In this document: piece by piece, positions 32,195 to 59,188 of the stretch
Layout of the letters: the number at the start of each line of letters is the position of its first letter
How positions within the stretch are numbered: the stretch's first letter is position 1
Origin: Methanosuratincola petrocarbonis
Lineage (GTDB): Archaea > Thermoproteota > Methanomethylicia > Methanomethylicales > Methanomethylicaceae
Length of the DNA stretch: 64,000 nucleotides
Reading direction: 5' to 3'
Assembly (NCBI GenBank): GCA_030522375.1
Contig: CP130488.1
Span: 576,569 to 640,568, forward strand
The notes under the pieces: model-generated
Told to the model about the DNA's origin: nothing
Database searches by the model: none
What the model saw: only the letters and a program-made list of their open reading frames with translations
Program-made: the position numbers and the translations under genes

Positions 32195-32329
32195 ATGGTA
32201 TCCGCCGACGATCGGGCAAAGTCGAACCCAAGCAAAGTGGATCTGTGGGGAAAGCTAATGGGCTGCGCGAAGAAGTCCTATGATCCGGACGAGGCAGAGG
32301 TAGAGCTCGACAGAGGCGAGGTCGCATAG
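32195..32329 (+). CDS. Small hypothetical ORF (44 aa)
   Basis: ATG preceded by a GGAGGA Shine-Dalgarno-like motif about 10 nt upstream. Encodes MVSADDRAKSNPSKVDLWGKLMGCAKKSYDPDEAEVELDRGEVA. Below the ORF-track length cutoff. Speculative. Confidence 0.2.
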   Translation: MVSADDRAKSNPSKVDLWGKLMGCAKKSYDPDEAEVELDRGEVA

Positions 32330-32434
32330 GGAGCCTGTTCTAGACCTTCGCGCCATTGCTTGCCGGCAATCCCTGCAGCCGAAAATATTTAAAGCGGATC
32401 CGTCAGGCAAAGCGAAAGTACTCCCGGGCTGTAG

Positions 32435-33256
32435 TTGAGCATATTAATATTAATACAACCTCCGAGGAAATTATCGGGTCTGATCAGCATGCCCGAACCA
32501 AAACAAGGATCGAGACTGGTAACTGAGCCAGGCAAGGTGCTATACTGGAGGGGGTGCATGTCCAGGCTCCGGACGAAGGAGATCGCGGACTCGACCGAAG
32601 AGCTGCTCCGGAGGATGGGCGTCGCCTTCGGCACACTCGGCGCAAAGGAGGGTTGCTGCGGCTCGGTGCTCCTCAGGACCGGAGAGACAGAGGCTGCGAG
32701 GAGGGTGGCTTCCGAGGCTGTGGGGAGGATCGCATCGGGGGGCTATTCCGAGGTAGTGACAGCCTGCCCCGGGTGCTTCAGGACGATGGCTTCGGAGTAC
32801 CCTGCGCTGGTAGGCGGGGGCGGGAACCTCCCGTTCAAAGTGAGGCACATCTCCCAGTTCCTGGTGGAGAGGAAGGGCATGCTGGAGGGGAGGCTCGGCA
32901 GGCTGGAGGCGAGGGTCACGTACCACGACCCGTGCCACCTCGGGCGGCACATGTCCGTCTATGAGGAGCCGAGGGAGCTCATCAGGATGATACCTGGGGT
33001 CGAGCTCGTCGAGCCGAAGTACAACAGGTCGAGGGCGCTATGCTGCGGGTCGGGCGGGGGCGTCAGGTCGGCGATCCCGGACCTCTCGAGGGAGGTCGCG
33101 AGGTCGCTGGTGAGCCAAGCCCCGGAGAGGGTCGGGATAATCGTGACCGCCTGCCCGTTCTGCAATTTCAACATCAAGGAGGCTGCGGCAGCGAGGCCGG
33201 GCATAAGGGTGATGGACCTCCCGGAGCTCCTGCTCGCATCTTGGAGGGCTGCATGA
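32435..33256 (+). CDS. CCG-domain Fe-S oxidoreductase, LutA-like (lactate utilisation protein A / HdrB-like)
   Basis: Two CCG motifs (EGCCGSV, ALCCGSGGG) with cysteine-rich domains. Overlaps the downstream LutB-like start. Confidence 0.7.
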   Translation: MSILILIQPPRKLSGLISMPEPKQGSRLVTEPGKVLYWRGCMSRLRTKEIADSTEELLRRMGVAFGTLGAKEGCCGSVLLRTGETEAARRVASEAVGRIASGGYSEVVTACPGCFRTMASEYPALVGGGGNLPFKVRHISQFLVERKGMLEGRLGRLEARVTYHDPCHLGRHMSVYEEPRELIRMIPGVELVEPKYNRSRALCCGSGGGVRSAIPDLSREVARSLVSQAPERVGIIVTACPFCNFNIKEAAAARPGIRVMDLPELLLASWRAA

Positions 33257-34542
33257 TGCCAGGTGAACAGAGAGGCGGGGAATGGCTGAGCAGGAAGCAC
33301 GGCGAGTTCAGGGAGTGGATGGGCGACGAGAAGCGGAGGACAGGGCTGGGGAGGGCGGTCTCCGCTTACACGGCTGCGAAGGAGAAGGCGCTGGAGAGGC
33401 TCCCGGAGCTCGAGGCGGTCAGGAAAGAGGTCCGCCAGATCAAGGAGCAGTCGATCGCCAGGATGGGCGAGCTGGCGAAGGCGGCGATGGACTCGATCAG
33501 GGACGTGAAGGGCGAGGCTTACCTGGCAAGGGACGCCGAGGAGGCGAGGAGGATAGTCTCGGAGCTCGTCGGGCAGGGCAAACTGGTCGTGAAGTCCAAG
33601 TCGCTCACCAGCGAGGAGATCGGGATAAACGAGGCTCTCGAGGGGCTCGGGAACAGGGTATACGAGACCGACCTCGGCGAGTTCATCATACAGCTCAGGA
33701 AGGAGAAGCCGACGCACATCATAAACCCGTCGGTCCACGTCCCGAGGGAGGAGGTCGCGCGGACCTTCTCAGAGCTCCTGGGGCGGAGAGTGGACCCGGA
33801 TATTGCTGGGCTGGTCGGGGTCGCGAGGGAGTACCTGAGGGACAAGTTCTGCAACGCCGACGTCGGGATCACCGGGGCGAACATAGTCTCGGCGAGGACC
33901 GGGACGCTCTTCATCGTCGAGAACGAGGGGAACGCGAGGTTCGTGAGCAACGCCCCGCCGAAGCACATCTGCATCACCGGGATCGAGAAGATAGTCCCGG
34001 GGCTGCCCGAGGCCTTCAAGGTGCTGCAGGTCCTCCCGCCGTACGCGACGGGCGTCTCCATATCCGCCTACGTCTCGCTGATAACCGGGCCCAGCAAGAC
34101 CGCGGACATCGAGAAGACTATAGTCTACGGCGCGCACGGACCGAAGGAGCTCCACGTCGTCCTACTCGACAACGGGCGGAGCAGGATGGCTGAGGACGAG
34201 GCGTTCAGGGAGGCCCTGTACTGCATAAGGTGCGGGGGGTGCATGTACGAGTGCCCGGTCTACAGGATCATCGGCGGGTCCTTCGGGAACAACTACTTCG
34301 GCGGGATAGGGCTGATCTGGAGCGCCTTCACCGCCGGGGAGGAGGCTGTCGCGGCTGCGGTGGACGCGTGCACCAAGTGCGGCAGGTGCAAGGAGGTCTG
34401 CCCGCTCGAGATCGACACCCCGAGGATGGTCGAGCGCCTCAAGGAGCGGCTCGCCAGGAAAGGGTACGTCCACCCGAGGCACGAGGAGATAAAGAGGAGC
34501 ATACTCGAGAAGGGGAACCCGTTCGGCGAGAGGGAAGGATGA
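33253..34542 (+). CDS. LutB-like iron-sulfur protein (LUD/DUF162 domain plus 4Fe-4S ferredoxin)
   Basis: ATGA overlap with the upstream gene. CIRCGGCMYECP and CTKCGRCKEVCP motifs. LUD-type N-terminal domain. Start set at MMPGEQ; the ORF-track upstream extension was rejected. Confidence 0.75.
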   Translation: MMPGEQRGGEWLSRKHGEFREWMGDEKRRTGLGRAVSAYTAAKEKALERLPELEAVRKEVRQIKEQSIARMGELAKAAMDSIRDVKGEAYLARDAEEARRIVSELVGQGKLVVKSKSLTSEEIGINEALEGLGNRVYETDLGEFIIQLRKEKPTHIINPSVHVPREEVARTFSELLGRRVDPDIAGLVGVAREYLRDKFCNADVGITGANIVSARTGTLFIVENEGNARFVSNAPPKHICITGIEKIVPGLPEAFKVLQVLPPYATGVSISAYVSLITGPSKTADIEKTIVYGAHGPKELHVVLLDNGRSRMAEDEAFREALYCIRCGGCMYECPVYRIIGGSFGNNYFGGIGLIWSAFTAGEEAVAAAVDACTKCGRCKEVCPLEIDTPRMVERLKERLARKGYVHPRHEEIKRSILEKGNPFGEREG

Positions 34543-34878
34543 GTGGATGATCGCCCACAGATATTCTCCTAATTCCCTTAGATTTCTCTGAGAACATGGT
34601 ATTTGAGAAGCTCTGGATTTCGGGACTCTAAACAAGCCTGTTTGTTGTTGGAATTACTTCTTTGAAGTCAAGATTGCACAGAAGAGACGACAAATCTACT
34701 TCGTCTTTACTAATGATTTTTCCCTCTGAGAATGTTTTGTCCGCATCGAAAAACAGCTTCCAGCCTTTGCTTTGCCCTTGATCATTTAACCGTCTTGGCA
34801 TTGTGCCTTTTATAAGCTTATCGATCTCAGAAAGTAGCGTCTCATATTGGAAAATTTTAAGATTCTATATGATCCAAC

Positions 34879-35373
34879 ATGAAGAAGAGGGGCATTGGGG
34901 ATATGCCCAAAAAGAGCCTCACAATAGCAGCAGTAGCGATTATTGTAACTTTAGCATTGGTGTCTGTTGCCTTATGGTTCACTCAGGAGCTTAAACAAAG
35001 GGAAGCTATCAACAACGTCCAAATAGCCTTGGACGGGGTGAGCGTCGAGAGTATAGGATTAACAGGTGCGACGCTCAACATTAGATTAAGGGTGTACAAC
35101 CCTGGCACGATTACTGCAACTTTGGATCATGCAGATTACGACATGTACGGCAACAATGTTCATCTCGGAAACGGCACAATCTCTCAAAGAGTAGACATTC
35201 CGCCAGGTGGGACTAGGGCGGTTTCGACAGATTTCTACCTTTCGTATGCAGGGGTCGGGAATGTCCTTTGGAATGCCATCCGGGAAGGGAAAGTGACCTG
35301 GCGCGTAAGAGGCACCGCCTACTTTGATGCCCTTTTAGGCACTATAAACATCCCATTCGACCTCACTCTTTGA
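34879..35373 (+). CDS. LEA14-like / WHy (water-stress and hypersensitive response) domain protein with N-terminal TM anchor
   Basis: 164 aa. TM helix (LTIAAVAIIVTLALVSVALWF) then an LEA type-2-like beta-sandwich (ATLNIRLRVYNPG...ADYDMYGNNVHLG). Confidence 0.6.
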   Translation: MKKRGIGDMPKKSLTIAAVAIIVTLALVSVALWFTQELKQREAINNVQIALDGVSVESIGLTGATLNIRLRVYNPGTITATLDHADYDMYGNNVHLGNGTISQRVDIPPGGTRAVSTDFYLSYAGVGNVLWNAIREGKVTWRVRGTAYFDALLGTINIPFDLTL

Positions 35374-35507
35374 AGCTGCCCTTAGCCACGCCCTCGCTTT
35401 AGCGACCTTCGACAAGAAGCTCAAGAGAATAGCGATAGAAAAGGGTTGGGATTCGTTCCAGAAAGGCGTTACGATTGGCTTGTCAACCCTCAAAAACCCT
35501 CTTTATT

Positions 35508-35900
35508 TAACGGTGGGCTCTTCGCCTTTTCATCAGCAGAAAAATGGCTACTGCAATGATCAATATTACTAATACAAGTATCGCGGCCACTGTCCCTGGA
35601 ATCCATTGCTGGTCCTGCGGCTGGACCTCTTATACCGATAAGAAAACCGCCTGACTCTTGGCCCCCTCATGATCGCTGTCGCCCTCCCAGGAGGCGGTCA
35701 CTCCCCAGTTGCCCGGCAGATCAGGTGCAATAGCGAACTCGTAGCGCCCATGCCCGTCAGCTGCCGTGCTTACGGTCATGTTGCTCCTATCGGGCTTGGC
35801 GAAAACCAGCTTTATTGTCGCCCCTGGCATCGAGATGATTGATCCTGAGACATTAATGACGTCCTTAAAAGCCGCTGCAGGATTGGAAACTGAGCGCGAT
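35508..35900 (-). pseudogene. Frameshifted C-terminal remnant of a CarboxypepD_reg-type surface protein with a TM tail
   Basis: Minus-strand frames give ...KDVINVSGSIISMPGATIKLVFAKPDRSNMTVSTAADGHGRYEFAIAPDLPGNWGVTASWEG... and, after a frame switch, ...QPQDQQWIPGTVAAILVLVILIIAVAIFLLMKRRRAHR*. This resembles the C-terminus of the 15654-18119 surface protein. No N-terminal part is present. Confidence 0.45.
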
Positions 35901-36018
35901 TCCGCCAGGTTCCCTCGCGTTTGACTTAATATTTAGGTAATTTTACTAAAAAGGATAAGTAATCATTTAAAAAGGCTTAAATATAAAAATTAAAGAAAAA
36001 AATCCGTAGATAATAAAA

Positions 36019-36543
36019 ATGGTATCCAATAGTCTAAATTGGACAAACTGGTTAAAATTTAAAAATATTTGGGTAAGGAATGGAAGTAAATATTTCTTCC
36101 AATCTAAGGAAAATCTGCTCATTCCTGAAGATCCGGGTGTCTACCAAGTCAGGTGCATACAAAAAAACGATAAGCCGATTCAAATACAAAGGGCGAATGG
36201 TGTCGATACGGAGGGCATCCTCTACATAGGCAGCTCTAGTGATCTTATGGAAAGAATAAGGACTTTTTGGAGAGGGGTTAACGAGAATGTGCCTCCAAAT
36301 CTATTGCAAGCTTCTATTTCAAGCGCCAACATGTCCCAGATTTACAACCTTTTGAAAGTCCCTCATTCAGGTGCCAATACCTACGCGATTTTCCAGTTTG
36401 CTGGGGTTTTCCCTCAGGATTCTTTAGAAGTGCAGTGGGCTCAAACATCTACATACAAATCCGATGAAACAACTCTGTTATACGCATATATGGCAAAGTT
36501 TCTTGACAAGCCTCCTTTGAATCTTTCGATCAAGCGGTGGTGA
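36019..36543 (+). CDS. GIY-YIG nuclease-like protein
   Basis: PGVYQVRC...(20 aa)...ILYIGSSSDLMERIRTF matches GIY-x10-20-YIG plus the downstream R/E motif. 174 aa, AT-rich, with a strong AT-rich promoter-like region upstream. Confidence 0.5.
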   Translation: MVSNSLNWTNWLKFKNIWVRNGSKYFFQSKENLLIPEDPGVYQVRCIQKNDKPIQIQRANGVDTEGILYIGSSSDLMERIRTFWRGVNENVPPNLLQASISSANMSQIYNLLKVPHSGANTYAIFQFAGVFPQDSLEVQWAQTSTYKSDETTLLYAYMAKFLDKPPLNLSIKRW

Positions 36544-37546
36544 TTTTAGGGAAGAGCAAAGAGTGCCATTATTCGATCTATTGCTCCAGACATCTAGATG
36601 AACTGCATAAGGGGGGCGCAAAAAATCATGCGCGCCTAAGCGCCAAGATCGATTATCGATCTTCCCCCCATTTTCTTTGCATTGACCGTCAAATCAGCCC
36701 ACCAGAAAGCTCTCAAAACCATGAGTTTCGTAAAACGGTTTCAGTACTTCCTTCAGAACCAGGTTCTAGGTTGGATCCGCAAGGATGCTGTCCGTCCCCT
36801 GTTCAGCAACGGCGATCGCCGCCCATCCATTACCATGTAAAGTCACAGGCGCCATGGGATCTTACACTTCTGATACATGCGACGTCGTCCTTCCTTCGTA
36901 TTTGTTCAATCACCAGCCGATTGAGCCTGTGATCCTTCTTGCAAGAACCATGTCCGATACCTCTGGGCATGGGATGCAGAATGATAAATCCTTGCTGCGA
37001 GGACAGAATTCCAGCTCCACCCTGGATGCGCACAATTATGCATCTAGGATCGACTCACCAAAGGTGGCTCTGATAAAAAATGGATCTCACTGAAGTGATG
37101 ATCGAACAAGATGCAGGCATTTCAAGGGAAGCATGCTATGAGATCAGGAGACTGGACTGACTTCTTTTTGGAGCGAGGAGCTCTTCAACGGGGGACAAGT
37201 GCAAGGAGCGGCGCGTTTTCTGGCTGGGACTCGAGGTCCACTGGGGGCAAGGCCCACGGGAAGCGCGCCGGACCGGAAGGGGACGGGGGTGCCGAGGTTT
37301 GAGCTGGAGGGAGTGCGAGGGTGTCCTGGAGCTCCTGTTCCTGAGGATGCGCGGGTGCGGGTCGAAGGAAGAGTGCCGGGAGGCGGTGGAGGAGGTCCTG
37401 GCGCTCGTGAAGGAAAGGAAGCTCGAGAGGTTAAAAGAGCGGTTTGGGACGATGGGGTAGATGTTTTTAAAGCAGTGCTTAATGAATTCTATACTTGGCA
37501 AATAAGAACTAAATTTTTTATATAACAAATTTTCATACTTTGCTGC

Positions 37547-38002
37547 ATGGACACTGGTGATGAAAAACTGTTCTATTTTGCATACGGATCTAACATGGAT
37601 CCAGAACAAATGAAAGAAAGACAGGCAAAGTTTTTCTCGCGGAAAGGGGCCGTTCTAAGAGGATGGCAGCTCGTTTTTAACGTCGAATCGAAAACATGGA
37701 AATGCGGTGTTGCGAATATTGTCGAAAAAGAGGCCGCAAAGGTCGAAGGTGTGCTTTATGAGATCACAAAAAACAGTCTTGACGAATTAGATCGTTATGA
37801 AGGGTTTCCTAGAAAATATCAACGGAAATTGCTATCGGTCGAAAGTGAAGGCAAAGAATACAAAGCAGAAGTCTACATTTCAAAAGAAAATAAAGACGGG
37901 CTGAAGCCCTCAAAGAGATACTTGAAACAACTTCTGAAAGGGCAAGACGTTCTTTCCAAAGAGTACGTCGAGATGCTGAGGAAAGTGGAAACCCAGGACT
38001 AG
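37547..38002 (+). CDS. Gamma-glutamyl cyclotransferase (GGCT/AIG2-like) family protein
   Basis: FAYGSNM motif (YGS-N-hydrophobic) near the N-terminus and a catalytic Glu context (EGVLYEI). 151 aa. A TTTTATATA box lies about 30 nt upstream. Confidence 0.7.
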   Translation: MDTGDEKLFYFAYGSNMDPEQMKERQAKFFSRKGAVLRGWQLVFNVESKTWKCGVANIVEKEAAKVEGVLYEITKNSLDELDRYEGFPRKYQRKLLSVESEGKEYKAEVYISKENKDGLKPSKRYLKQLLKGQDVLSKEYVEMLRKVETQD

Positions 38003-38138
38003 ACAAAAAACCGGCAGTGTTGTTAAATCATGCTCTGGTCCTGATCCTGCGGAACCCCAGCAACTTGGAATTTTTTAATTTATAATTGATTAACTTTAAA
38101 TTAGCTACAATATATAGTAATTAAAGGATGGTGAAGAC

Positions 38139-38309
38139 ATGACAAAGTGTCCATATTGCGGCCATGATGGAGCAGACAAAGTGCTTAAATCGTGGCGATT
38201 TCGTTTCTACGATGTCAGGCGGATGGAATGTGAGAAGTGCGGTAAGAAATTTAACCACTATAAGGGCACCTCTGGAGGGAAAATTTCAGAGTTCTTTATC
38301 AAGATGTGA
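38139..38309 (+). CDS. Small Cys4 zinc-ribbon protein (56 aa)
   Basis: MTKCPYCGHDG...(24 aa)...CEKCGKKF gives two CxxC pairs. A GGTGA SD-like motif lies upstream. Below the ORF-track cutoff. Confidence 0.4.
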   Translation: MTKCPYCGHDGADKVLKSWRFRFYDVRRMECEKCGKKFNHYKGTSGGKISEFFIKM

Positions 38310-38586
38310 GGGGGGCTCAACGGAAGCTCGTGAGCCTCATGTTGATTCTGATTTTATCCCCAGCGCGCCGGAAATGGGGAAAAATCCAGTTTTCCCTATC
38401 CTGGTATTGGAGTGAGGTCTCTTACCGATGAGAGCATCAAAAGCAAGTTCCCTTTGTTCAACAAACGCAACTCCTCAATCACGTCCTCTGAAGTCTTAAT
38501 TCTTAATCGTAATTTTTTAGTATTAGAAGGCTTATAGAAATGCTATCACTCACTGTTAGAAGACGACTGTTTCGCGGTGTCTTTAT

Positions 38587-41286
38587 ATGAAAAATGTGTG
38601 GGAAGTTTGCGATTTTAGTGACGATATTAAGTTCGGGAGGTTTGATCCGAGCAGGTTTGCTGTTGAGCTTCATGCTGTTCTTGATGGAACGGCTGATCCT
38701 GTATATATAGATTCTAAACTTTTCCTTTCGAATACCTATCCGACATCGAACATGGCTTTCATATTGAAAGAAGCTTTGAAAAGGCTAAGTTCTAAGGGCA
38801 GTCAGCCAGTTTTCATTTTGGATACGGAGTTCGGAGGAGGAAAAACTCATACACTTCTCTTATTGTATCATGTATTTAGCAATAGAAGCATAGGCACAGA
38901 GTTCATTAGGGATTTGGGTATTGACAAGGAAATTGATGTTCTGGAAGTTCCAGAGGTAAGATTGGTGGCTATAGACTGTAGAAGCGTGAAGAGAAATACT
39001 CTTTGGGGCGAGTTAGCTGATGTTTTGGGGCATTATAAAGATTTTGAGGCTGAGGATTCTGCAAGGCAGCCTGTGCAGGATATCAGTAAATTTAAGTCTT
39101 TGCTTAAGGAGCCCACTCTGATTTTGATTGATGAGTTGCCAGATTATTTGCTTAGGGCGGCGGCTCGTGAGGTCGGAAAGGTAACACTCGCGGATCTAAC
39201 TTTGTCTTTCATAATTCACTTGATTAGCGCGGTTGCAACGAGTAAGAATTCCATGCTAATTATAACTTTGACCGGGAAGCAAAGCCTGTATGAGAGGTTT
39301 GTGAAGAGGTTTAAGGGGGAGTATCAGAGGATTCTGGACGGATTTTTGATTGAGGAGCTACATGACATAACTATTGAAGCGTCTTCTAGACAGACGAAGT
39401 TCATTGTTCCAGTAGAGAAGGACGAAGTTTCAAAGGTTATCCGAAAGCGTCTAGTGAAGAGCATAAAGGATGTGGATGAAGTCAGAAAAATAGTACGTGC
39501 ATATTGCGATTATTATCAGAATAAGGGAATATTGATAAGTCCTGGTTATGAAGAAAGGCTTGAAAATGCTTATCCGTTTCATCCGTTCCTCATTGACGTT
39601 CTTTATGAAAGAGTCTCAACCATCGAGGAGTTTAACAAGACCAGGGGCACACTTCGGTTATTGGCGATGATTTTACACAGGATTTATAGGGATAAAGTTG
39701 AATGTAAATTGGTTTCTGCCGGCGACATTCCCCTTCATGACCCTGAGATAAAGGATGAGCTTACTTCCAAGCTGGGGAAGGGTGATATGAGGCCCGTTAT
39801 CGAGGCCGACTGCATAGGCAAGGCGAAGGTTATTGACGGAAAGAGGAAAATTAAATTGGCTGAAAATATCGCTCGAACCATCTACTTATACTCGCTTATA
39901 GGGGCTGTGAAAATTTCGGGAATCAGGACGGGGGATGTGAAGCTTGCTGTTTGTCAGCCTGGAATTGACCCTGCTATTGTTGACGACATACTTAGAGAGA
40001 TGGACGAGGAATTTTGGTATTTGAAGCATGAAGCAGGCGAGTATTATTTTGATAAGGAGCCAAACATAAACAAGATAATTCACGATTACAATGGCGAGGT
40101 GAGGCCCGAAGAGGCTAGGGGAATTATCAAGAGCACTTTGGAGTCCATGCTTCCGAACGGTTCAGGTGTTAAATGCATAGTTTGGGATAAAGACAAGGTT
40201 ACCGACGAGCCTGACAGTCTTAAAATCTTTGCTCTTGATTACATGGATGTTGTCCGCTCTGATGAATTAGGCGTTCTCGAAAGCATTCTTGAAAGCAGAT
40301 CTGAGGGCGGGATTAGAAGTTATAGGAATACTGTAGTTATGCTCCTGCCTTATAAAGAGGGCGTGAATGCGTTAATGGAAAGTGCGGTATTGATCCGCGC
40401 TATTGAAAAGGCGAAAATGGACGAACGCATCAAGCTTGACAGGGATAGATTAAAGAAAATTAACGAGAAGCTTGAAGCCAGTAAGGGCCATATGGTTACG
40501 GACTGTCAAAACGTTTACTCAAAGGTGGTTTATCCTAGGATCGGCGATGGGAAACTGCAGATAGACGATTTGGGGTATGAAGAGAAAAAGAGCTTAACAG
40601 ATATGGTTTTGTCCCATCTTAGGCGTAGGGGAAAACTTGTTGACAACTTATCGGCATCAGCGATAGAGGATCTCTTGAAGGGGGATGGAGCTGGAAAAGA
40701 CAAAGTTCAGATTAAGGATATTTACACGCTTTATCGGACAGATAGACGGAAACCTTTCATACTTTGCGGCGCCGTTGTTCTTGACGCTGTTAGGAACGGT
40801 GTTAGGGAGGGCCTGTTCGGATATGCGAGGGAGCTTGTTGAGAAAGACGGTAAATACGTGGCGAAGCCTAGAGAAGAAGTATTCAGCGTGGACTGGGAAG
40901 GATGGATTATAAAACCAGATCTCGTTTACGTTGAAGAGAAAAAGGAGCGGGAAAAAGAAAAAGAAGAGGAAAGGAAACCTTGGCCTCCGCCAGAGCCCCT
41001 TTATAATTATCGTTTTGAATGTAAAAGTTTGAATGAAGCCTTGGAGCACCTGAATAAGCTTAAAGTTTTGTCTGTGGGTCGGGCCTTGGATATGCGCATT
41101 TCAATCAGTCTTATAAACGAAAGCGAAGACAAGGTCAGCATTGAAAGTAAATTGAAGAAGCTCGGGGAGCTTGAGAGTCTGCTTAATGTACTTAGGTCTA
41201 AGGGCTATTCTGGAAACGGCGAAATCACAGTAAGCTCTAAAGAGGATCTAAGCGAAGATTTGAAAAGGTATGGTTTGAGGGGTTAG
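38587..41286 (+). CDS. DUF499-type P-loop ATPase (BrxC/PglY-like, COG1483-like)
   Basis: 899 aa. Walker A TEFGGGKTHTLLLLYH and Walker B LILIDELPDY. Long alpha-helical C-terminal region. First gene of a co-directional cassette with the MTase and helicase. Confidence 0.8.
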   Translation: MKNVWEVCDFSDDIKFGRFDPSRFAVELHAVLDGTADPVYIDSKLFLSNTYPTSNMAFILKEALKRLSSKGSQPVFILDTEFGGGKTHTLLLLYHVFSNRSIGTEFIRDLGIDKEIDVLEVPEVRLVAIDCRSVKRNTLWGELADVLGHYKDFEAEDSARQPVQDISKFKSLLKEPTLILIDELPDYLLRAAAREVGKVTLADLTLSFIIHLISAVATSKNSMLIITLTGKQSLYERFVKRFKGEYQRILDGFLIEELHDITIEASSRQTKFIVPVEKDEVSKVIRKRLVKSIKDVDEVRKIVRAYCDYYQNKGILISPGYEERLENAYPFHPFLIDVLYERVSTIEEFNKTRGTLRLLAMILHRIYRDKVECKLVSAGDIPLHDPEIKDELTSKLGKGDMRPVIEADCIGKAKVIDGKRKIKLAENIARTIYLYSLIGAVKISGIRTGDVKLAVCQPGIDPAIVDDILREMDEEFWYLKHEAGEYYFDKEPNINKIIHDYNGEVRPEEARGIIKSTLESMLPNGSGVKCIVWDKDKVTDEPDSLKIFALDYMDVVRSDELGVLESILESRSEGGIRSYRNTVVMLLPYKEGVNALMESAVLIRAIEKAKMDERIKLDRDRLKKINEKLEASKGHMVTDCQNVYSKVVYPRIGDGKLQIDDLGYEEKKSLTDMVLSHLRRRGKLVDNLSASAIEDLLKGDGAGKDKVQIKDIYTLYRTDRRKPFILCGAVVLDAVRNGVREGLFGYARELVEKDGKYVAKPREEVFSVDWEGWIIKPDLVYVEEKKEREKEKEEERKPWPPPEPLYNYRFECKSLNEALEHLNKLKVLSVGRALDMRISISLINESEDKVSIESKLKKLGELESLLNVLRSKGYSGNGEITVSSKEDLSEDLKRYGLRG

Positions 41287-41290
41287 CAGT

Positions 41291-41644
41291 TTGAGGTCTG
41301 TGAAATACCGCCTTGAAGAAAGCGGGAGTGGAAAAACCGCGTGTCTGCAGGCGGTAATAGAGGATAGGTTTGGACGTAAAAAAGTCAGTCTTTCTAGGCT
41401 TAGAGGGTGGCGAAAAGAAATAGCGGAGGAGCATTTAAAGCTTGAAAGCGGAAAATGGGACGATGATGCCGCAAAAACTCTTGTGAGTTTAGAAGCCTTA
41501 AAATGCGCAAGAAGCCTGGATGAAGCCTTAAAGTTTTTGCAGGCTGTAAATAGCTTAAGCCAGCTTGATCTTCATTTCTGGGCAACTAAATTCTTGAACG
41601 ATGATAAAAAACCCAGAAGGGCTTGGAGGATGCTTTATGGATAA
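41291..41644 (+). CDS. Small hypothetical protein between the ATPase and methyltransferase
   Basis: 117 aa. Starts 5 nt after the ATPase stop and its stop overlaps the MTase start, so it is translationally coupled. No recognisable family. Confidence 0.45.
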   Translation: MRSVKYRLEESGSGKTACLQAVIEDRFGRKKVSLSRLRGWRKEIAEEHLKLESGKWDDDAAKTLVSLEALKCARSLDEALKFLQAVNSLSQLDLHFWATKFLNDDKKPRRAWRMLYG

Positions 41645-44231
41645 AACATTGATGGACAACAAGAGCGTCGAACACCTAAAACTGTTTGCGGATGTTAGCG
41701 AGGAGGCTAGGAAGGAAAAACTTGGCAGGCCGCCTATAAGTGAAATGATTTATTGGTGGACGAGAAAGCCGCTTATTGTTGGAAGGACTGTAACACTTCT
41801 TTCGTTGCTTCCTGAAAACACCAATCTGGCTGATGTTAAGCCTTTGCTGGGGCTCGGTAGGGAAAAAAGAGCTTTCAATTATGCGCCAAAGCTTGAGTCT
41901 ATAAAGAAGAATGCGGGCAAGCCACTAGACTCGTTAACCGTGTTTGATCCTTTTGCTGGAGCTGGCAACCTTCTATTTGAGGCGGCCCGTTTGGGGCCTA
42001 ACTGCACAGCTATGGACTATAATCCTGTTGCACACATTATATTGAAGGCTACGTTGGAATACCCGGCTGTTTATGGCGAAAGGCTTGCAGAGGACGTTGA
42101 GCGATATGGCAAATTGGTAATAGAGCGGGCGAAGAAAGAGGTCGGCAAGTTCTACTATAGAAAGAACGGTCGCCAAACCTTGCATTATTTGTGGTGTTGG
42201 TGTATAAAATGCCCTTATTGCGGTCAAAGAGTGCCCCTAACGAATCAAATGTGGCTTGATAAAAAAAGGAAAACAGGCTATAGGATTAAGCCTACGAAAG
42301 ACAACGACTTTGAGATAGAAGTTGGAATGGTAAGTGATAAAGAAGGCTCGAAGTACACCCAGAAAGACGGGGAAGCCACCTGCATAAAATGCAAAAACGC
42401 AATAAGTTATCAGCACATGACCAAAGACATTGCTGAGAGAAGAGACAAACAAATGATAGCAGTCGTAGTCAAGGCACAGAAAGGAAAAGACTATGAACCG
42501 TTCACGATGGAGGATATAGAATTATTCAATAAAGCAACGGCAGAGCTGAAGGACCAATGGGCAAATCTAATAAGCCAAGACCTAATCCCGCAAGAGGAAC
42601 TCAAAGAATCAGAATTATTCCGTGTAACTAATTATGGCTTGAAAAAGTGGTTTGAGTTTTTCAACGAGAGACAATTGCTTTTGATGTCCACGCTTTTGCG
42701 CATCATCCGCGATGTCTGCTCGGAAATAGTGGACAAAGAATACAGAAAGGCTATAGCCACTTACTTGGGGCTGATGATGTGCAAGCATGTTGATCACAAT
42801 TGTATTGGTGTGAGATGGGACCCAACAAAACAGATAACTTGTGATTCCCTATCTATGAGAAGTCCCCGTATTATCTACAATTTCGCTGAAACCAACCCGT
42901 TTGAGAAGACTAGCGGTTCATTTCACAGTGTATTACGGAATGTTGTTGATGCGGTAAGTTTTGCGGCGTTGAATAAGACGCCTGCTAAGGTTTTGCGCGG
43001 TTCTGCAGTAAATATGGCTGTATCAAACAAATTTGACTTAGTTTTAACTGACCCGCCATATATGGAGGATGTCGCTTATGCGGAGTTGAGCGAATTTTTC
43101 TATGTGTGGCTCACTAGAGTTCTCAGAGACTATTATCCTGAGTTGCCATCAACAGTTCCAAGCGATGAAGATCTTGTTTTAAGCAAGGGTAGGTTCGGCG
43201 GAAACGAAAAACTTGCTTTAGAGTTTTATAAGAAAGGCATGACTTTAGCCTTCCAAAACATCTACAAGTCCCTTAAAGATGACGGGCTTTTGGTGGTCTT
43301 CTTTGCCCATTCAAGTACCGAGGCCTGGGATCTTCTCTTAGAGGTTTTAAGGGGATCCAGGTTTAGGGTGGTTTCCAGCTATGCCGTGCACACGGAAAGC
43401 ACAGAAAATCCTTTGGCAAGAGGCAAGACTTCCTTCATGAGTTCCATAGTGCTTTCATGCAGGAAGATACTTGAGGATAAAGAGGCTTATTTTGAAAGCC
43501 TCATGCCCAGAGTTGAGGAAGAGATAAAAGAGTTAATTGAAGGTTTAAGCGACGAGGATCTGCTCAGCCTTCCCATAACCGACCTCCTTATAATGGCCTA
43601 CGGTAAAGTGCTTGAAGAATTAACACAATACTCCCAAATCAAAAGCTACAGGGCTGATTTCAAGGCTAAATTTGAAGATTTGATAGGCGAAGCCAGAGAC
43701 TTCATCTTCAGAGAAGTCGTAAGAAAGCTAACTGGAAGATCGCTTAACATTTTAGGACCCGAAGCCTCATTCGCACTTATAACAAAAATCTTTTACAGAA
43801 GCTCAATCCCTAGTGATGAAGCCCTAAAAGTTGTTAGAGCGTATGGGCTGACCGTCGACGCCCTAGTGAAAAAGGGCTACGCCAAAAAAATCAGCGGCGG
43901 AATAGAAATAACGCCCTTCACAGAAGTCCCCTTAGACATCAGCCCCGAAGAAGTGGAAAGAAACAACCTCTACCAACAACTCCTCTACCTATTAAAAACA
44001 GCCAACGAGAAAGGGGCGCCGGCCATCAAACAGCTGCTGTCATCCTACGGCAACTTCGGGCTTCAAGAACTCCAATACATCATAAACCTACTGACAAAAC
44101 ATTATAGACTGCTCATTAACAAAGGCGAAGAACTTAGAGACAGCGAAAAAATCGAACTCCAAGTTTTAGATTCTATATCAGATGTTATAGGCCAGCCAAT
44201 GCAAAGAAGGACCCTCGACAGCTTCACTTAA
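41637..44231 (+). CDS. DUF1156-type N6-adenine/N4-cytosine DNA methyltransferase with an internal zinc ribbon (COG1743-like, PglX-like role)
   Basis: SAM motif I VFDPFAGAGNL and catalytic motif IV LVLTDPPYMEDVAY (DPPY). A CxxC...CxxC zinc ribbon (CIKCPYCGQ...CIKCKNA) lies between them. Long C-terminal domain. The ORF track starts at 41601; the in-frame ATG at 41637 overlaps the upstream stop. Confidence 0.85.
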   Translation: MDKTLMDNKSVEHLKLFADVSEEARKEKLGRPPISEMIYWWTRKPLIVGRTVTLLSLLPENTNLADVKPLLGLGREKRAFNYAPKLESIKKNAGKPLDSLTVFDPFAGAGNLLFEAARLGPNCTAMDYNPVAHIILKATLEYPAVYGERLAEDVERYGKLVIERAKKEVGKFYYRKNGRQTLHYLWCWCIKCPYCGQRVPLTNQMWLDKKRKTGYRIKPTKDNDFEIEVGMVSDKEGSKYTQKDGEATCIKCKNAISYQHMTKDIAERRDKQMIAVVVKAQKGKDYEPFTMEDIELFNKATAELKDQWANLISQDLIPQEELKESELFRVTNYGLKKWFEFFNERQLLLMSTLLRIIRDVCSEIVDKEYRKAIATYLGLMMCKHVDHNCIGVRWDPTKQITCDSLSMRSPRIIYNFAETNPFEKTSGSFHSVLRNVVDAVSFAALNKTPAKVLRGSAVNMAVSNKFDLVLTDPPYMEDVAYAELSEFFYVWLTRVLRDYYPELPSTVPSDEDLVLSKGRFGGNEKLALEFYKKGMTLAFQNIYKSLKDDGLLVVFFAHSSTEAWDLLLEVLRGSRFRVVSSYAVHTESTENPLARGKTSFMSSIVLSCRKILEDKEAYFESLMPRVEEEIKELIEGLSDEDLLSLPITDLLIMAYGKVLEELTQYSQIKSYRADFKAKFEDLIGEARDFIFREVVRKLTGRSLNILGPEASFALITKIFYRSSIPSDEALKVVRAYGLTVDALVKKGYAKKISGGIEITPFTEVPLDISPEEVERNNLYQQLLYLLKTANEKGAPAIKQLLSSYGNFGLQELQYIINLLTKHYRLLINKGEELRDSEKIELQVLDSISDVIGQPMQRRTLDSFT

Positions 44232-44243
44232 AGGGAAAGCGCT

Positions 44244-47200
44244 ATGATTCAGATAGGCTCAAGGGTTAAAATAAGAGGAAAAAACGAAACTGGAGCAGTT
44301 CTAGAGCTTAGGGGAAACTTCGCTCGAGTTTTAACGCTCACAGCCGACACGTGGCATCCAATCGAAGAATTAGAAGAAGACCTCTCTTTAATAGACCGCA
44401 TAATTACTGTAAATCTGGACGATGGATTAGACTTCATCCTGTCAATGGACGCCTACAGGCTGCTCTCAGAATACAAATTCAACCCCTACGTTCTAGCCTC
44501 ATCAACAAAAATCAGGATCTTTCCCCACCAGATAGACGAAGTCACAAGAATCCTTGACATGCCAAGGATGATGATCGCTGACGAGGTCGGTCTAGGCAAA
44601 ACAATAACCGCTGCGTTGGTCGCAAATGAACTCAAAGCCAGAGGGTTAGCAAACAAGCTACTATTTGTTGTGCCAAAGGCTCTGCTCTACAAGTGGCGCG
44701 ATGAATTAAACAACAGATTTGAAATGACTGCAGAAATCCTAGACTCCACCTATGTAAAAATACACGGGCCCCCTCTAGGCAAAAGGGAGTTCTGCTACAT
44801 CTCATCTATGGACTATCTAAAACAGAGCCATGTTATAAAAATGATTGAAGACGCAGAATTCGACATAACCGTAATCGACGAAGCCCACAAACTAGCGCTA
44901 AATACTGACAGACTAAAACTGGGCGAATGCCTAGCTCCAAGAACTAATCACATGCTTTTCCTGACGGCGACGCCCCACAACGGCGATAATGAGGACTATC
45001 TTAATAGAATCAAACTTTTAGACCCCTACATAACGGATGTGCAATCCGCCTCTCACATTCTAATTAGGAACCTAAAAGAGGATGTAGTAGACCTTGAAGG
45101 GAAAGAAGTCTTCCCTCCTAGGCAAAGCAAAACCGTATCTATCCCCATAAGCGAGGAAGAAACAAAACTTCACAGAATGGTGGATGAATATATCTCAAGA
45201 CGTATAGACGAAGCCCGGGATCGACAGGAATACAACGCAATGAGGTTTTTAGGGGGCATAATTCGCAAAAGAGCGTCGTCATCCCTAAAAGCCCTCAAAC
45301 TGACATTGGAAAGAAGACTAACAAGGCTAGGACAGGCTGTGAACGCAGAACAGGCCATAAAAAGAATGAAGGAGGCTGAAGAAGAGTTCGACGAGGAACA
45401 ATATGAGGAAAGCGAACAAGAGGTCGTAGGGATTTCGGGCTACTCCATAGAAGAAGATCGCAAAGAACTTGCAGAGTTGTTAGCTGAACTTGAAAAGATC
45501 CATGAAGATTCTAAAATAAAACATTTGATGAGCTTCATAGATACGATAAAGAAAGGCGATAAAACGACAAAAATAGTGATTTTTAGCGAATATAGAGACA
45601 CCGTAGACTACCTTTTCGAAAACCTGGCCAACAAGTATAGACTCGCGAAAATATACGGAGTCATGAACGTCGATGAGCGACATAATGCTTTGGCCAATTT
45701 TAGGGATCCAAATGGTGCGGAAATAATGGTCTGTACTGACGCGGCTGGTGAGGGCATAGACATGCAATTCGCCAACATAATGATAAACTACGACCTTCCA
45801 TGGAACCCAAACAGGCTCGAGCAAAGAATGGGGAGGATACATAGAATAGGTCAGACAAGACCTGTATACTATTACAACTTTATATTGTCGGGCACTATTG
45901 ACGGATACATTTTAAGTAAACTGTTAGAAAAAATCGAAGCAATAAAAGAAGCCATAGGCGACAAAGTCTACGATGTCGTTGGAAAACTTCTTTCAGAGGA
46001 AGGCATTTCAAGCCTATACGAAGAATTTTTGAAAGTACCTAAGGAGCTTTGGGAGGCCAAAGTCAAGAGGGTTGACGATATAATTGAGGAACGCAGGCGA
46101 ATATTGAATGAAATCAACGCCCTCCTCTCTGGACACAGGCTTGATAGAAGCAAACTTGAAGAAATCAAAAAAGTAAGACTCGAAGCCGTCGAAAAAGGTG
46201 AAGTTAAACGCTTCATAGAGGTCTACCTGGGAACTAAAGGAGGGAAAATAGAGCCCGTAAGAGAAGAAGACGAAGTTTACAGGCTAATGCTTCCGGCAAA
46301 GCTTGCACACAATCTTAACTACGGAACATTGGTCGGCAGCTTTTCAAATACAGTTGCAGAACAGAAAAACTATCCATACCTAGCTCTAGGAAACAAATGC
46401 ATAATGAGTATGATTTTGGACGCTATGAAGCCATCCGTCTCAATCTTTAAGCACGAAACATTAAGCGGAATACTTTACATTTATCGCGTCATATTGAAAG
46501 ATGGAAAGGGACAAGAAAGAAACGGAAAAATAATAGTTCTTCATTACTCCGAGGGAAAAATAAGGGAAATAGATCCAAGGAGCATATGGGATCTCGAACC
46601 TGTCGTCGGGGAAGAGCCTGAAATAGACACTAAAAACATTATTGAAGGCAAAAATTCAGCGGATCAGGCTCTACTCAAAATCGTATCCGACCTCAAAAAT
46701 GAAACCTCAGCAAAAATCGAGGAAATAAAGAACAAAACAAGAGACATAATCATAGCGTACTACTCAAGAAGAGTTGAGGAAAGTCGCAGAAAGATCGAGG
46801 ATTACCAGAATAGACTACAAGAGAGCCCCCACTACTCCAAGCTAATAAATAAAGAAGAGAGCACAATAAACTCGCTAAAACTAGAACTTGACTCAAATCT
46901 AACAGAAATATCCTCAGTATTTAATATTTACACCCTCTACGAGCTTATAGGCACGGCCATAATCATAGGAAAGCCAGGCGCAGACATCAAGAAGAAAGTG
47001 GAAAACGCAGGAGTTCAGGCAGTCATAAAATACGAAATGGAAAGGGCCAAAACAGAAGAGGAAAGAAACAGAATCAGAGATGTCTCTGACCAATATAAGG
47101 GATACGATGTAGAATCTTTTGACAGAGTGATTGAAGTCAAATCCTTTAGCACAACAGGATCAGTAGAAATGACAAGCAATGAATGGGAAACGGCTAACAG

Positions 47201-47366
47201 AATTAAAGAAGCATACTGGCTTTACACCGTGGAAAACGCCTTAGACAATCCTATAGTTTACCCAATACAAAACCCAACAGTAAAATTCAAGGATCTAGTA
47301 GAAAAAATTCCCATAATAGACTATAGATATAGAATTGACAAATGGAAAACCGCATCAACAAAATAG
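44244..47366 (+). CDS. SNF2-family helicase with a C-terminal DUF3883-like PD-(D/E)xK nuclease-like domain
   Basis: Motif I DEVGLGKTITA, motif II DEAHKL, motif III LFLTATPHNG, motif V VCTDAAGEGIDMQ, motif VI RMGRIHRIGQTR. C-terminal GYDVESFDRVIEVKSF matches the DUF3883-like restriction-endonuclease fold. 1040 aa. Confidence 0.85.
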   Translation: MIQIGSRVKIRGKNETGAVLELRGNFARVLTLTADTWHPIEELEEDLSLIDRIITVNLDDGLDFILSMDAYRLLSEYKFNPYVLASSTKIRIFPHQIDEVTRILDMPRMMIADEVGLGKTITAALVANELKARGLANKLLFVVPKALLYKWRDELNNRFEMTAEILDSTYVKIHGPPLGKREFCYISSMDYLKQSHVIKMIEDAEFDITVIDEAHKLALNTDRLKLGECLAPRTNHMLFLTATPHNGDNEDYLNRIKLLDPYITDVQSASHILIRNLKEDVVDLEGKEVFPPRQSKTVSIPISEEETKLHRMVDEYISRRIDEARDRQEYNAMRFLGGIIRKRASSSLKALKLTLERRLTRLGQAVNAEQAIKRMKEAEEEFDEEQYEESEQEVVGISGYSIEEDRKELAELLAELEKIHEDSKIKHLMSFIDTIKKGDKTTKIVIFSEYRDTVDYLFENLANKYRLAKIYGVMNVDERHNALANFRDPNGAEIMVCTDAAGEGIDMQFANIMINYDLPWNPNRLEQRMGRIHRIGQTRPVYYYNFILSGTIDGYILSKLLEKIEAIKEAIGDKVYDVVGKLLSEEGISSLYEEFLKVPKELWEAKVKRVDDIIEERRRILNEINALLSGHRLDRSKLEEIKKVRLEAVEKGEVKRFIEVYLGTKGGKIEPVREEDEVYRLMLPAKLAHNLNYGTLVGSFSNTVAEQKNYPYLALGNKCIMSMILDAMKPSVSIFKHETLSGILYIYRVILKDGKGQERNGKIIVLHYSEGKIREIDPRSIWDLEPVVGEEPEIDTKNIIEGKNSADQALLKIVSDLKNETSAKIEEIKNKTRDIIIAYYSRRVEESRRKIEDYQNRLQESPHYSKLINKEESTINSLKLELDSNLTEISSVFNIYTLYELIGTAIIIGKPGADIKKKVENAGVQAVIKYEMERAKTEEERNRIRDVSDQYKGYDVESFDRVIEVKSFSTTGSVEMTSNEWETANRIKEAYWLYTVENALDNPIVYPIQNPTVKFKDLVEKIPIIDYRYRIDKWKTASTK

Positions 47367-47819
47367 CATCCGCAGAAATTAATAGCCACTAATAGTCGAT
47401 GATTTTAAAAATTCAATACCATCTCGACCTCCAGCTTCTCAGAAACTTTCCTTCACGAAACTTTTTGAAGCCAGGTCATAGGTGTAGCACATGCTCCGAC
47501 CCTCGCCGTAGCTGGTTATATTGAACGACGCCCCCCTGAGGAGGTTTGGTTCCGGACTAGCAAGGCGCAGTGTAAGCGCCCAGAGGCACTATGTGTAAAT
47601 TCGGATTCATGGGTGCACTTGCACTAAACATAGATTGTGATCCAGATCCTGCATTTTTTGCTGCAGATGGCCTTGAAAGTGATGGGATCTCGACTTCTTG
47701 ATTGGATCGAGAATATAAAGGAGATAGTCTCGGTCGTCACTAACATGGGTTGGCAGAAGGCGTGCCCACAGAATAGTAAATATATACCCAACAGCAATTA
47801 TTTGCAGAGGGTCGGTATA

Positions 47820-48503
47820 ATGCTGGGCTCAGGGCACATAGGCTTCTGGCTCGGAGAGCGGGCCGAGAAGGAGGCGATATCTGCCTGCGAGAAGCACATG
47901 GAGAAGATATTCTCGATAGTCAGGAAGTTCCGCGAGTACGTCTACGCGTTCCTGGACAGCGACTGCGCGAAAGCCAAGGAGATGTCGTCATCGATAATAG
48001 CCCTAGAGCGTGAGGCCGACCAGATCAAGGAGAACATAATGAAAGAGCTGATGGAATCCTCGCTCCACCCGATGGACCAGGATGAGATCATACGCCTGCT
48101 CATGACCGCCGATGACATCGCTGCCCACGTGAAGTCCGCGACGAGGAAGCTCCTGTACGCCCACCCGAAAGACATCCCCGAAGATGTGAAGTCTGGCATC
48201 CGCGGTCTGGTAGACCTGCTCCTGGAGGAGGCTTTGAGCCTCATGGAGACCATTGAAGCGCTCGTCAAGAGGACCGGGGAAGTGGTCAGCAAAGCCGAGA
48301 AGACTGAGCGCCTCGAGGAGAAGATCGACGATGTGCGCGTCGAGCTGATCGCGAAGATACTCGACTGGGGGGATACAGCCCCGCACATAAGGGACTGGCT
48401 GATGATAAAAGAGGTCGTCGAGAACATCGAGGCGTCGTCAGACCGGATGGAGGACACCACCGACCTGATCAGGGCAATAGCCGTGCTCAGGGGCAAGAGA
48501 TAA
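47820..48503 (+). CDS. DUF47 / PhoU-like phosphate transport regulator-related protein
   Basis: Helical-bundle protein with DUF47-type repeats. Start chosen at the ATG at 47820, about 30 nt downstream of an AAATATATA box. The ORF-track N-terminal 61 aa is low-GC probable promoter. Confidence 0.7.
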   Translation: MLGSGHIGFWLGERAEKEAISACEKHMEKIFSIVRKFREYVYAFLDSDCAKAKEMSSSIIALEREADQIKENIMKELMESSLHPMDQDEIIRLLMTADDIAAHVKSATRKLLYAHPKDIPEDVKSGIRGLVDLLLEEALSLMETIEALVKRTGEVVSKAEKTERLEEKIDDVRVELIAKILDWGDTAPHIRDWLMIKEVVENIEASSDRMEDTTDLIRAIAVLRGKR

Positions 48504-49601: not shown

Positions 49602-49869
49602 TCGATGTACTGTTTGACGTGTAGCATCATGATCTGTTAAAAAGGTTTCTTAAGGCAATTTTTTCTCGGTCGGGCAGCTCAAATACGAATCTGAATTAAA
49701 TAATAAAAAAATAAGGAACGCCCAATGGTGGGGATTCTGCGCAGCGCTCCTTCGGCTGTTCATAATGATCTGCCACACGCAAAATAAGCCGTTCTGGAAT
49801 TGAATTCGTAAACAGGAAAAATAAGAAACGCGAACTGTTATGAAAGCCCGATTCTCCGGTAGCGCCCTT

Positions 49870-59182: not shown

Positions 59183-59188
59183 ACTACA

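Follow-up and report, generated by a model that had tools for sequence, protein, structure and literature searches.

In Halomonas meridiana, HmaA defends against phage T4 and requires its NOV_C nickase to do so; HmaA alone was protective, giving T4 defence at low multiplicity of infection (MOI) and growth arrest at high MOI, an abortive-infection-like outcome (PMC11232893). Phage grown on HmaB-expressing Halomonas cells did not escape, and HmaB or HmaC is missing from 15-20% of HmaA loci (PMC11232893). The trio of DUF499, DUF1156 and helicase proteins has also been classed as the Type-1 DUF499-centred bacteriophage exclusion (BREX)-related (BR) system and read as restriction-modification (RM)-like (Rakesh & Krishnan 2026, PMC12839542). 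Defence hotspots between conserved core genes are known from bacteria such as Pseudomonas, Vibrio and E. coli (PMC12629846), and in the literature searchable here we found no papers on defence systems in the genus Methanosuratincola. We analysed a 64,000-nucleotide stretch of Methanosuratincola petrocarbonis (GenBank assembly GCA_030522375.1, contig CP130488.1, positions 576,569 to 640,568 of the forward strand; hereafter the window), in which a 13.2-kb low-GC block occupies the intergenic space between a lutB-like gene and the DUF47 and PiT genes. This block is very probably a horizontally acquired, strain-variable defence island with an Hma/Type-1 BR core (Table 1).

We profiled GC content in 300-nt windows, compared 1-kb windows by Mann-Whitney test, and set tetranucleotide usage and GC content at third codon positions (GC3) against the backbone. 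Just past the lutB stop codon (34540-34542), GC drops from 0.63-0.66 to 0.39-0.44, and it returns to at least 0.56 at about 47850. The interval 34543-47819 has a GC of 0.435 versus 0.568 for the other 50.7 kb of the window (p = 1.5e-7), its tetranucleotide usage correlates with that of the backbone at 0.44-0.67 versus 0.72-0.93 elsewhere, and GC3 of the island genes is 0.41-0.52 versus 0.78-0.90 in DnaK, DnaJ, LutA, LutB, DUF47 and PiT. Island composition is uneven, with host-like patches at 35.5-35.9 kb (GC 0.59) and 37.11-37.46 kb. An earlier reading made from the letters alone (the sequence-only reading) had described this sharp fall and placed the island ends at about 34550 and 47640-47820; the fall is real, and the ends lie close to the borders at 34555/34556 and 47758/47759 that we obtained by comparison with strains carrying other cargo. 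Its backbone figure of about 60% GC was too high, the value being about 57% in this window and 54.4% across the M. petrocarbonis genome (PMC12244365). The sliding-window GC, tetranucleotide and codon-usage checks it had proposed revealed a foreign rather than a uniform composition.

A LutB search with one genome per species returned about 25 loci of Methanomethylicia and neighbouring lineages. In about 18 species, among them the complete genome of M. verstraetei, the order is DnaK-DnaJ-LutA-LutB, a gap of 50-1800 bp, and DUF47-PiT. None of these species has homologs of the island genes between lutB and DUF47/PiT, and the relatives' gaps show no sequence similarity to the island; their DUF47 proteins begin with MLGSGHIG. 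The gaps of 16 relatives carry a conserved minus-strand gene for a coiled-coil-like protein of about 200 aa (for example L028 11278-12003 and L013 11324-12025), which neither the window nor any M. petrocarbonis strain contains and which two other Methanosuratincola metagenome-assembled genomes (MAGs; L009 and L011) also lack. We do not claim this protein as Snf7/ESCRT-III, the Pfam Snf7 match having an E-value of 4.4. The empty site that the sequence-only reading had proposed to look for therefore exists at the level of species rather than strain, and its inference of horizontal acquisition agrees with this empty site, with the foreign composition and with the 38-40% GC of the metagenomic contigs that hold the closest relatives of the operon. 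Its suggestion of a landing site within or beside a surface-protein gene is not supported by the comparison: no relative or alternative-cargo strain has such a gene here, and most relatives hold the ~200-aa gene.

We recovered other M. petrocarbonis strains through the window's MarC and GrpE proteins and aligned the borders against strains with a Type I R-M cargo (RM-type; L123, L110, L112, L114 and L117), the Shango-like L124, and L126. The RM-type island, whose gene content was read outside the roughly 4.7 kb nearest lutB, occurs in GCA_039630685.1, GCA_039630705.1 and two Logan samples, and encodes HsdM (2.7e-100), HsdS (4.5e-66), a 332-aa protein and HsdR (recognised by its domains) on its DUF47 side; the lutB side of the same contig encodes an MBL-fold protein and other genes. 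After lutB, sample DRR198553 instead encodes an SngC/BrxHI-like helicase (6.1e-74) and two open reading frames (ORFs) for BrxD/SngB-like ATPases. Homology to the window stops at 34555/34556 on the left in all alternative-cargo strains and restarts on the right at 47759 (RM type) or 47578 (DRR198553). The alternative cargoes have a GC of 0.39-0.45 versus 0.53-0.59 in their flanks. Because other strains carry different low-GC defence cargo within the same borders, the lutB-DUF47/PiT site is a strain-variable defence hotspot, holding Hma, Type I R-M or a Shango-like set at the same spot. The recurrence of about 220 nt of the left end (34561-34779) at 86% identity inside the RM-type island suggests that cargo was replaced within an older island.

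These comparisons also dispose of the idea that the low-GC block is old resident DNA whose composition reflects local constraint or an assembly artefact, a reading to which we give practically no weight. The window does contain other AT-rich non-coding stretches, such as that at 59.1-60.1 kb (GC 0.27-0.40). However, the block is missing from the ~18 related species, conspecific strains have different genes at the site, and GC3 of the island's coding genes is about 40 points lower, which refutes the idea already. The block also recurs unchanged in four or more independent assemblies and in several Logan contigs reaching across both junctions. Across several M. petrocarbonis assemblies and Logan contigs the island is 99.7-100% identical, the 899-aa ATPase matches a protein of this species without any difference, and none of the island's segments is repeated at another place in the window. 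We dropped the contig ends seen in Logan at 37340, 37368 and 47522 as candidate polymorphism borders, since they belong to adjacent unitigs that overlap by about k-1.

We then considered how cargo enters and leaves this site. The window contains just two copies of an exact 9-bp direct repeat, GCCCACAGA, one at each border and in the same orientation, with 0.63 copies expected per window; by our own estimate, the chance of such a coincidence within ±10 nt of both borders is about 0.002, a post hoc figure for borders that had been fixed first by strain comparison. The flank search for direct repeats proposed in the sequence-only reading thus yielded this short repeat, and no direct or inverted flanking repeats of 14 nt or longer beyond chance. 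The island could on this basis be a decayed integrase-borne integrative element (a provirus, integrated plasmid or casposon-like element) that inserted site-specifically and lost its integration module, the 9-bp repeat being an att or target-site scar. That the two copies sit at two independently defined borders favours this idea, as do the pseudogene debris in the left 4 kb and the GIY-YIG gene, which could be a selfish nuclease. We nevertheless regard it as quite improbable. In the RM-type strain the sequence at the left border is GCCCTATCAGA, so that the repeat could be a scar left long ago or simply belong to the old flanks. Pfam scans and six-frame reading detected no integrase or recombinase in the island, as the sequence-only reading had also stated for integrase and tRNA genes, and the island has no transposase, terminal inverted repeats or virus-like genes; no tRNA gene is present in the whole window. 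The closest ORFs of the integrase family (56.9-58.0 kb) are 9 kb from the island, have host-like GC and occur in all strains whatever their cargo. Three unrelated cargoes within the same borders are better explained by recombination than by three independent site-specific insertions.

Homologous recombination in the flanking core genes, rather than an element-encoded integrase, is most likely the means by which cassettes move between strains. Only Hma-type assemblies carry the window's exact LutB allele, and 32543-48184 (15.6 kb) differs by a single nucleotide polymorphism (SNP) across three other Hma-type assemblies, with flanks that diverge by about 1.5%. Identity to other strains is mosaic over the whole window, with blocks of 100% and blocks of 82-98%; this points to heavy recombination in the population, or else to composite MAGs. 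Together, the allele distribution, the SNP-poor tract and the mosaic identity fit cassette exchange by recombination in the flanks. Given the window-wide mosaic, and with several of the assemblies being MAGs, we do not take the 15.6-kb tract as proof that a sweep happened recently. One such mosaic segment, 18200-23000, is 100% identical to L123, L124 and L126 and only 82-95% identical to L125 and L127.

The core of the island, 38587-47366, is a single operon of four tightly packed genes, HmaC, ORF117, HmaB and HmaA, with a 4-nt gap between the first two, an 8-nt overlap between ORF117 and HmaB, a 12-nt gap before HmaA and no TATA-like boxes inside it. The sequence-only reading had called an ATPase, a methyltransferase and a helicase here and had read the content as defence-type; both calls are upheld by the DUF499, DUF1156 and SNF2 plus NOV_C domains and by the PADLOC models (Table 1), although the named Hma system, the conserved fourth gene and the strain-variable hotspot had escaped it. 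All catalytic motifs in HmaC, HmaB and HmaA are intact. HmaC has a Walker A motif (GGGKTH at residue 83) and a Walker B motif (D182-E183) whose two acidic residues are invariant across 69 homologs. In its AlphaFold2 (AF2) model (predicted local distance difference test score, pLDDT, 87) the ATPase has the RADAR ATPase RdrA and an archaeal Walker ATPase as best PDB fold matches, and the C-terminus is RRM-like by predicted topology only (E806-812, H815-829, E835-843, E849-854, H859-871, E875-884). HmaB contains motif I (DPFAGAGN at residue 104), motif IV (DPPY at 472) and CxxC pairs at 189-195 and 249-252 that mark a zinc-finger insert in the target-recognition domain (TRD). HmaA carries GLGKT at 116, DEAH at 212, QRMGRIHRIGQ at 527 and the nuclease signature D955...E964-V-K966...E997, the four nuclease residues being invariant, Thermus homolog included. 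HmaA scores equally on the PADLOC models BrxHI/II and DrmD (BrxHI 5.9e-98, DrmD 3.6e-96), and its Pfam matches are SNF2-rel_dom (1.4e-17), Helicase_C (1.2e-26) and NOV_C (2e-15). Its residues 1-50, at the end where the Type-1 helicase has a TUDOR domain, appear beta-rich (MIQIGSRVKIRGKNETGAVLEL...), and the nearest solved relative, RapA, aligns from residue 51 only; sequence search gave no solved structures related to HmaC or HmaB. Nucleotide similarity of 62-71% to five metagenomic or MAG loci spans only 38593-47350, exactly the four genes, and the contigs of the three closest related operons have a GC of 38-40%.

From these domains and from published work on relatives, we propose a mechanism in which HmaB, reading a motif through its zinc-finger target-recognition insert, would mark the host chromosome there with N6-methyladenine (m6A). 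Assembly on DNA and detection of invaders would fall to HmaC, a STAND/ORC-like AAA+ ATPase that has DNA-binding modules and whose C-terminal RRM is variable, and the HmaA Snf2 translocase would then nick or cut unmarked DNA via its C-terminal PD-(D/E)XK domain. Alternatively, the operon may not be RM-like and may chiefly supply an effector of the abortive-infection or nickase kind. Infection would then trigger HmaA, and the methyltransferase and ATPase would be regulatory or dispensable, or the methyltransferase would serve epigenetic regulation. The Halomonas results described above (T4 defence by HmaA alone at low MOI with growth arrest at high MOI, no phage escape upon HmaB overexpression, and the 15-20% of HmaA loci without HmaB or HmaC; PMC11232893) speak for this alternative. 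Here, however, none of the four genes is damaged, and they are translationally coupled and conserved together in several archaeal lineages (HmaC identity 40-71%), which argues for joint function, and the architecture parallels the BrxC/PglXI/BrxHII triad of Type-3 BREX (PMC12839542). We consider an effector of this kind unlikely, though with a real share of the probability, and favour the methylation-gated scheme.

The fourth gene, ORF117, lies between the ATPase and methyltransferase genes, beginning 4 nt past the HmaC stop and overlapping the HmaB start by 8 nt (ATGGATAA), an overlap that is repeated in L087, L089 and L092. A gene of the same family holds this position in all six archaeal C-x-B-A loci examined, where x is the small gene (L087, L089, L091, L092/93 and L133/134 besides the window). 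Ranked by HmaC identity, the related loci are two JGI hot-environment contigs (70-71%), an ENA contig (53%), Caldarchaeum MAGs (48%) and Nitrosocaldus (40%), and their small proteins are 51-62% identical to ORF117. The Nitrosocaldus homolog is a 202-aa protein, the C-terminal half of which matches the family profile (hhalign probability 98%). A profile search collected 46 clusters of 86-123 aa, most of them 114-123 aa, and no cluster contains a Pfam domain. The AF2 model of ORF117 (pLDDT 93) has three strands followed by five helices and found no fold match in PDB or BFVD. ORF117 occupies the operon slot that DUF3780 holds in Type-2 BR systems such as that of an Acinetobacter plasmid, and by sequence it shows no relation to DUF3780 (hhalign probability 0.6%, no Pfam or NCBIfam match). 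Bacterial Hma loci of the order A-B-C (Thermus and Fervidibacter plasmids) have no ORF117-like gene. The protein is small, basic and rich in aromatic residues, and we think that an adaptor or reader function is probable. A broader proposal, which we put forward tentatively and rate slightly below an even chance, joins two statements: that archaeal C-x-B-A Hma/Type-1 BR forms a distinct four-component subtype with ORF117 as obligatory adaptor or modified-base reader, an analogue or very remote relative of DUF3780, and that the lutB-DUF47 gap is a cassette exchange locus in which Hma, Type I R-M and Shango-like systems are swapped by flanking homologous recombination. Two related loci depart from the common layout: ENA contig L091 (1-11556) carries tandem DUF499 systems, one A-B-C without the small gene and one C-x-B with it, and one Nitrosocaldus MAG (L133 10467-13962) encodes the helicase as two proteins, a Snf2 part of 763 aa and a NOV_C protein of 369 aa.

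Several points weigh against our interpretation of the locus. Among the M. petrocarbonis strains we found none whose site is truly empty. PADLOC gave no match for LEA_2, GGACT or the zinc-ribbon protein, so that a defensive role is not demonstrable for about one third of the island. For ORF117 no homolog can be recognised, and its role is a guess. The defence role of this operon is itself deduced from domains and relatives, and the methylation-gated restriction model is unproven because Halomonas HmaA protected alone and phage grown on HmaB-expressing cells did not escape (PMC11232893). Finally, several assemblies are MAGs, and the SNP-free tract and the mosaic identity may in part be products of consensus or chimeric assembly.

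The LEA_2, GIY-YIG, GGACT and zinc-ribbon genes left of the operon, together with a pseudogene and host-like fragments, are best seen as accreted cargo and debris. None of these four genes matches PADLOC, and none stands beside related Hma operons. The sequence-only calls of LEA14-like and GGCT-like proteins hold at the E-values given in Table 1. Its GIY-YIG call also holds, as a putative assignment drawn from family alignment only: 252 cluster representatives match the protein at E<=1e-3, the motif set GVY...YIG...R...H...E...N is conserved in a 36-sequence alignment and complete in the window protein, and PF01541 is matched by 17 of the 36 family members (E<=0.01), the window protein alone reaching only E=0.045. 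The pseudogenised surface-protein C-terminus that it had noticed is likewise real, with host-like composition (GC 0.59, GC3 0.67) and weak Big_3_5 (0.0011) and CarboxypepD_reg (0.053) matches. Its picture of stand-alone promoters fits only part of the island: by a simple TATA-box count, chosen because archaeal promoters are not modelled by a sigma-70 scanner, three of the five stand-alone genes (GIY-YIG, GGACT and zinc-ribbon) have a TATA-like box 29-40 nt upstream (background 5.4%), whereas the four big genes form one operon. The zinc-ribbon protein matches Zn_ribbon_NrdR at 2.2e-5, under the Pfam cut-off. The host-like patch that ends in a 53-codon ORF is probably a captured fragment of a host-type gene, and a 99-aa stretch containing that ORF had no Pfam match. 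Within the left-end remnant, a 57-codon AT-rich ORF (34628-34801, minus strand) has no family match and may be the remnant of an older cargo gene. A VapC/PIN C-terminal fragment read by eye at 35374-35470 found no Pfam support and is not claimed.

Table 1. Features of the island and its flanks (window coordinates; E-values as obtained with the model named).
Feature	Coordinates	Strand	Evidence and remarks
lutB-like gene, LUD domain and 4Fe-4S	33256..34542	+	Conserved left flank outside the island; Pfam LUD_dom 2.4e-53; GC3 0.90; syntenic in 25 related loci
9-bp direct repeat GCCCACAGA, left copy	34553..34561	+	Spans the left border
Variable low-GC island, 13.2 kb	34556..47758	.	Borders from alignment with alternative-cargo strains
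Degenerate/non-coding remnant	34561..34779	.	~86% identity to left end of other strains' RM-type island; blastn and tblastx versus L123 16525-17038
LEA_2 (LEA14/WHy-like) membrane-anchored protein, 164 aa	34879..35373	+	Pfam LEA_2 2.6e-15; GC3 0.52
Surface-protein C-terminus pseudogene	35507..35925	-	Ig-like beta-sandwich, transmembrane helix, basic tail; N-terminus lost; in-frame TAA 35630-35632
Putative stand-alone GIY-YIG-superfamily protein, 174 aa	36019..36543	+	Family alignment; TATA-like box at -38
Degenerate stretch, broken frames on both strands	36544..37110	.	Six-frame translation; no family; no homolog in any compared locus
Host-like GC patch (0.58-0.61)	37111..37460	+	Ends in 53-codon ORF 37299-37460, GC3 0.889
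GGACT/AIG2-like gamma-glutamyl cyclotransferase-fold protein, 151 aa	37547..38002	+	Pfam GGACT 2.9e-19, AIG2_2 7.3e-14; TATA-like box at -30
Zinc-ribbon protein, 56 aa, two CxxC pairs	38139..38309	+	TATA-like box at -29; annotated gene in OZ337362.1
HmaC, DUF499 STAND/AAA+ ATPase, 899 aa	38587..41286	+	PADLOC HmaC 9.7e-88; Pfam DUF499 8.4e-51
ORF117, small basic protein, 117 aa, isoelectric point 9.6, TTG start	41291..41644	+	Between ATPase and methyltransferase genes
HmaB, DUF1156 N6-adenine DNA methyltransferase, 864 aa	41637..44231	+	PADLOC HmaB 5.8e-75; Pfam DUF1156 5.1e-7, N6_N4_Mtase, MethyltransfD12
HmaA, Swi2/Snf2 helicase with C-terminal NOV_C PD-(D/E)XK nuclease, 1040 aa	44244..47366	+	PADLOC HmaA 1.8e-96
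Right-end non-coding remnant	47367..47758	.	47578-47758 ~88-91% identical to DRR198553 (Shango-type); blastn and tblastx versus L113
9-bp direct repeat GCCCACAGA, right copy	47764..47772	+	5 nt within the conserved right flank
DUF47/PhoU_div	47820..48503	+	Conserved right flank; Pfam PhoU_div 9.2e-25; own TATA box at 47779-47787
PiT	48576-49586	-	After the DUF47 gene

Variation is also present elsewhere in the window. Between dnaJ and lutA, a 426-bp segment (32000-32425; GC 0.52) with a 44-50-codon ORF is found in the window and in RM-type and Shango-type strains, and about 14 nt take its place in the Hma-type L001-L003, L125 and L127, a distribution that breaks an otherwise simple link of strain background to island type. 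The gap between PiT and a helix-turn-helix (HTH) gene (49825-49868) also varies, on a smaller scale: it measures just 42 nt in the window, RM-type strains have a 1.45-kb insertion (GC 0.42) encoding a 359-aa protein that matches the PADLOC candidate PDC-S11 (9.5e-15), and Logan contig L119 has a different 253-aa gene. The integrase-family ORFs mentioned above are an adjacent pair on the minus strand (56877-57422 and 57443-58006; 181 and 187 aa) that both match Phage_integrase (PF00589) and are annotated as split in every strain compared, with any island type; a XerA-like recombinase, split or in two parts, is one possible reading of the pair, and an old pseudogene another. A second AT-rich dip at 59100-60150 is about 1 kb of non-coding DNA with GC down to 0.27, regulatory or intergenic rather than another island. 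At its edge lies a thiamine pyrophosphate (TPP) riboswitch (59173-59286, minus strand; 68.8 bits, E=2e-11) upstream of a ThiW-family thiamine-precursor transporter gene (58601-59182, minus strand), the sole match of the Rfam scan and 11 kb from the island.

M. petrocarbonis LWZ-6 is among the first cultured Thermoproteota methanogens and still lacks a genetic system. An intact system of methyltransferase plus nuclease, with Type I R-M at the same site in sister strains, is a likely transformation barrier, and the operon predicts a strain-specific m6A methylome. With three defence cargoes between the same flanks, the locus offers a clean natural experiment in an archaeon. The ORF117 family, conserved and without Pfam annotation, falls outside the published three-gene description of Type-1 BR/Hma.

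Among known systems, Hma as defined in PADLOC has the same three families, and its HmaA, HmaB and HmaC models are the best or near-best for the window proteins; the D...ExK...E nuclease residues that are essential in Halomonas are conserved in the window HmaA. The locus described here differs in its gene order, C-x-B-A rather than the A-(inserts)-B-C of the bacterial loci examined, in its conserved 117-aa fourth gene and in its thermophilic archaeal host. With Type-1 BR the locus shares the DUF499 ATPase with a predicted RRM-like C-terminus, the DUF1156 N6-methyltransferase with a zinc-finger insert, the Snf2 protein with a C-terminal PD-(D/E)XK domain, and the lack of HKD, PglZ and iSTAND genes. 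Type-1 BR is, however, published as three genes only (PMC12839542), whereas the window locus has four, and the N-terminal HEPN fusion of many Type-1 ATPases is absent from its HmaC. Type-2 BR (DUF499-DUF3780-DUF1156-PLD/HKD-helicase; Acinetobacter baumannii plasmid L100) has an identical order, with a small stand-alone protein between ATPase and methyltransferase, and the DUF3780 fold is described as a small beta-sheet with five backing helices, similar to the three strands and five helices of the ORF117 model. The locus nonetheless lacks a stand-alone DUF3780 and an N-terminal HKD/PLD nuclease: no PLD domain is present, the PLD_Helicase model matches the helicase core (327-569) only, the nuclease is a C-terminal PD-(D/E)XK domain, and the NCBIfam equivalog models for Type-2 score far under their cut-offs.

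The ATPase/methyltransferase/helicase triad parallels BrxC/PglXI/BrxHII of Type-3 BREX (PMC12839542), but the PglZ of BREX types 1-6 and Type-3 BR was absent from Pfam and PADLOC scans of the eight main ORFs, the zinc-ribbon gene and the fragments, and the island has no BrxA, BrxB or BrxL genes. Of DISARM (defence island system associated with restriction-modification), only the Snf2 helicase matches (DrmD), without DrmA, DrmB (DUF1998) or DrmC. The site itself resembles bacterial defence hotspots in its conserved flanks, in the mutually exclusive low-GC defence cargoes of conspecific strains and in the lack of an element-encoded integrase, and differs in that its host belongs to the Thermoproteota (class Methanomethylicia/Methanosuratincolia). 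The island is an element of a known kind, and its new points are local: a conserved fourth gene family that Pfam does not annotate, and a hotspot, well resolved, in a Thermoproteota methanogen that was brought into culture recently.

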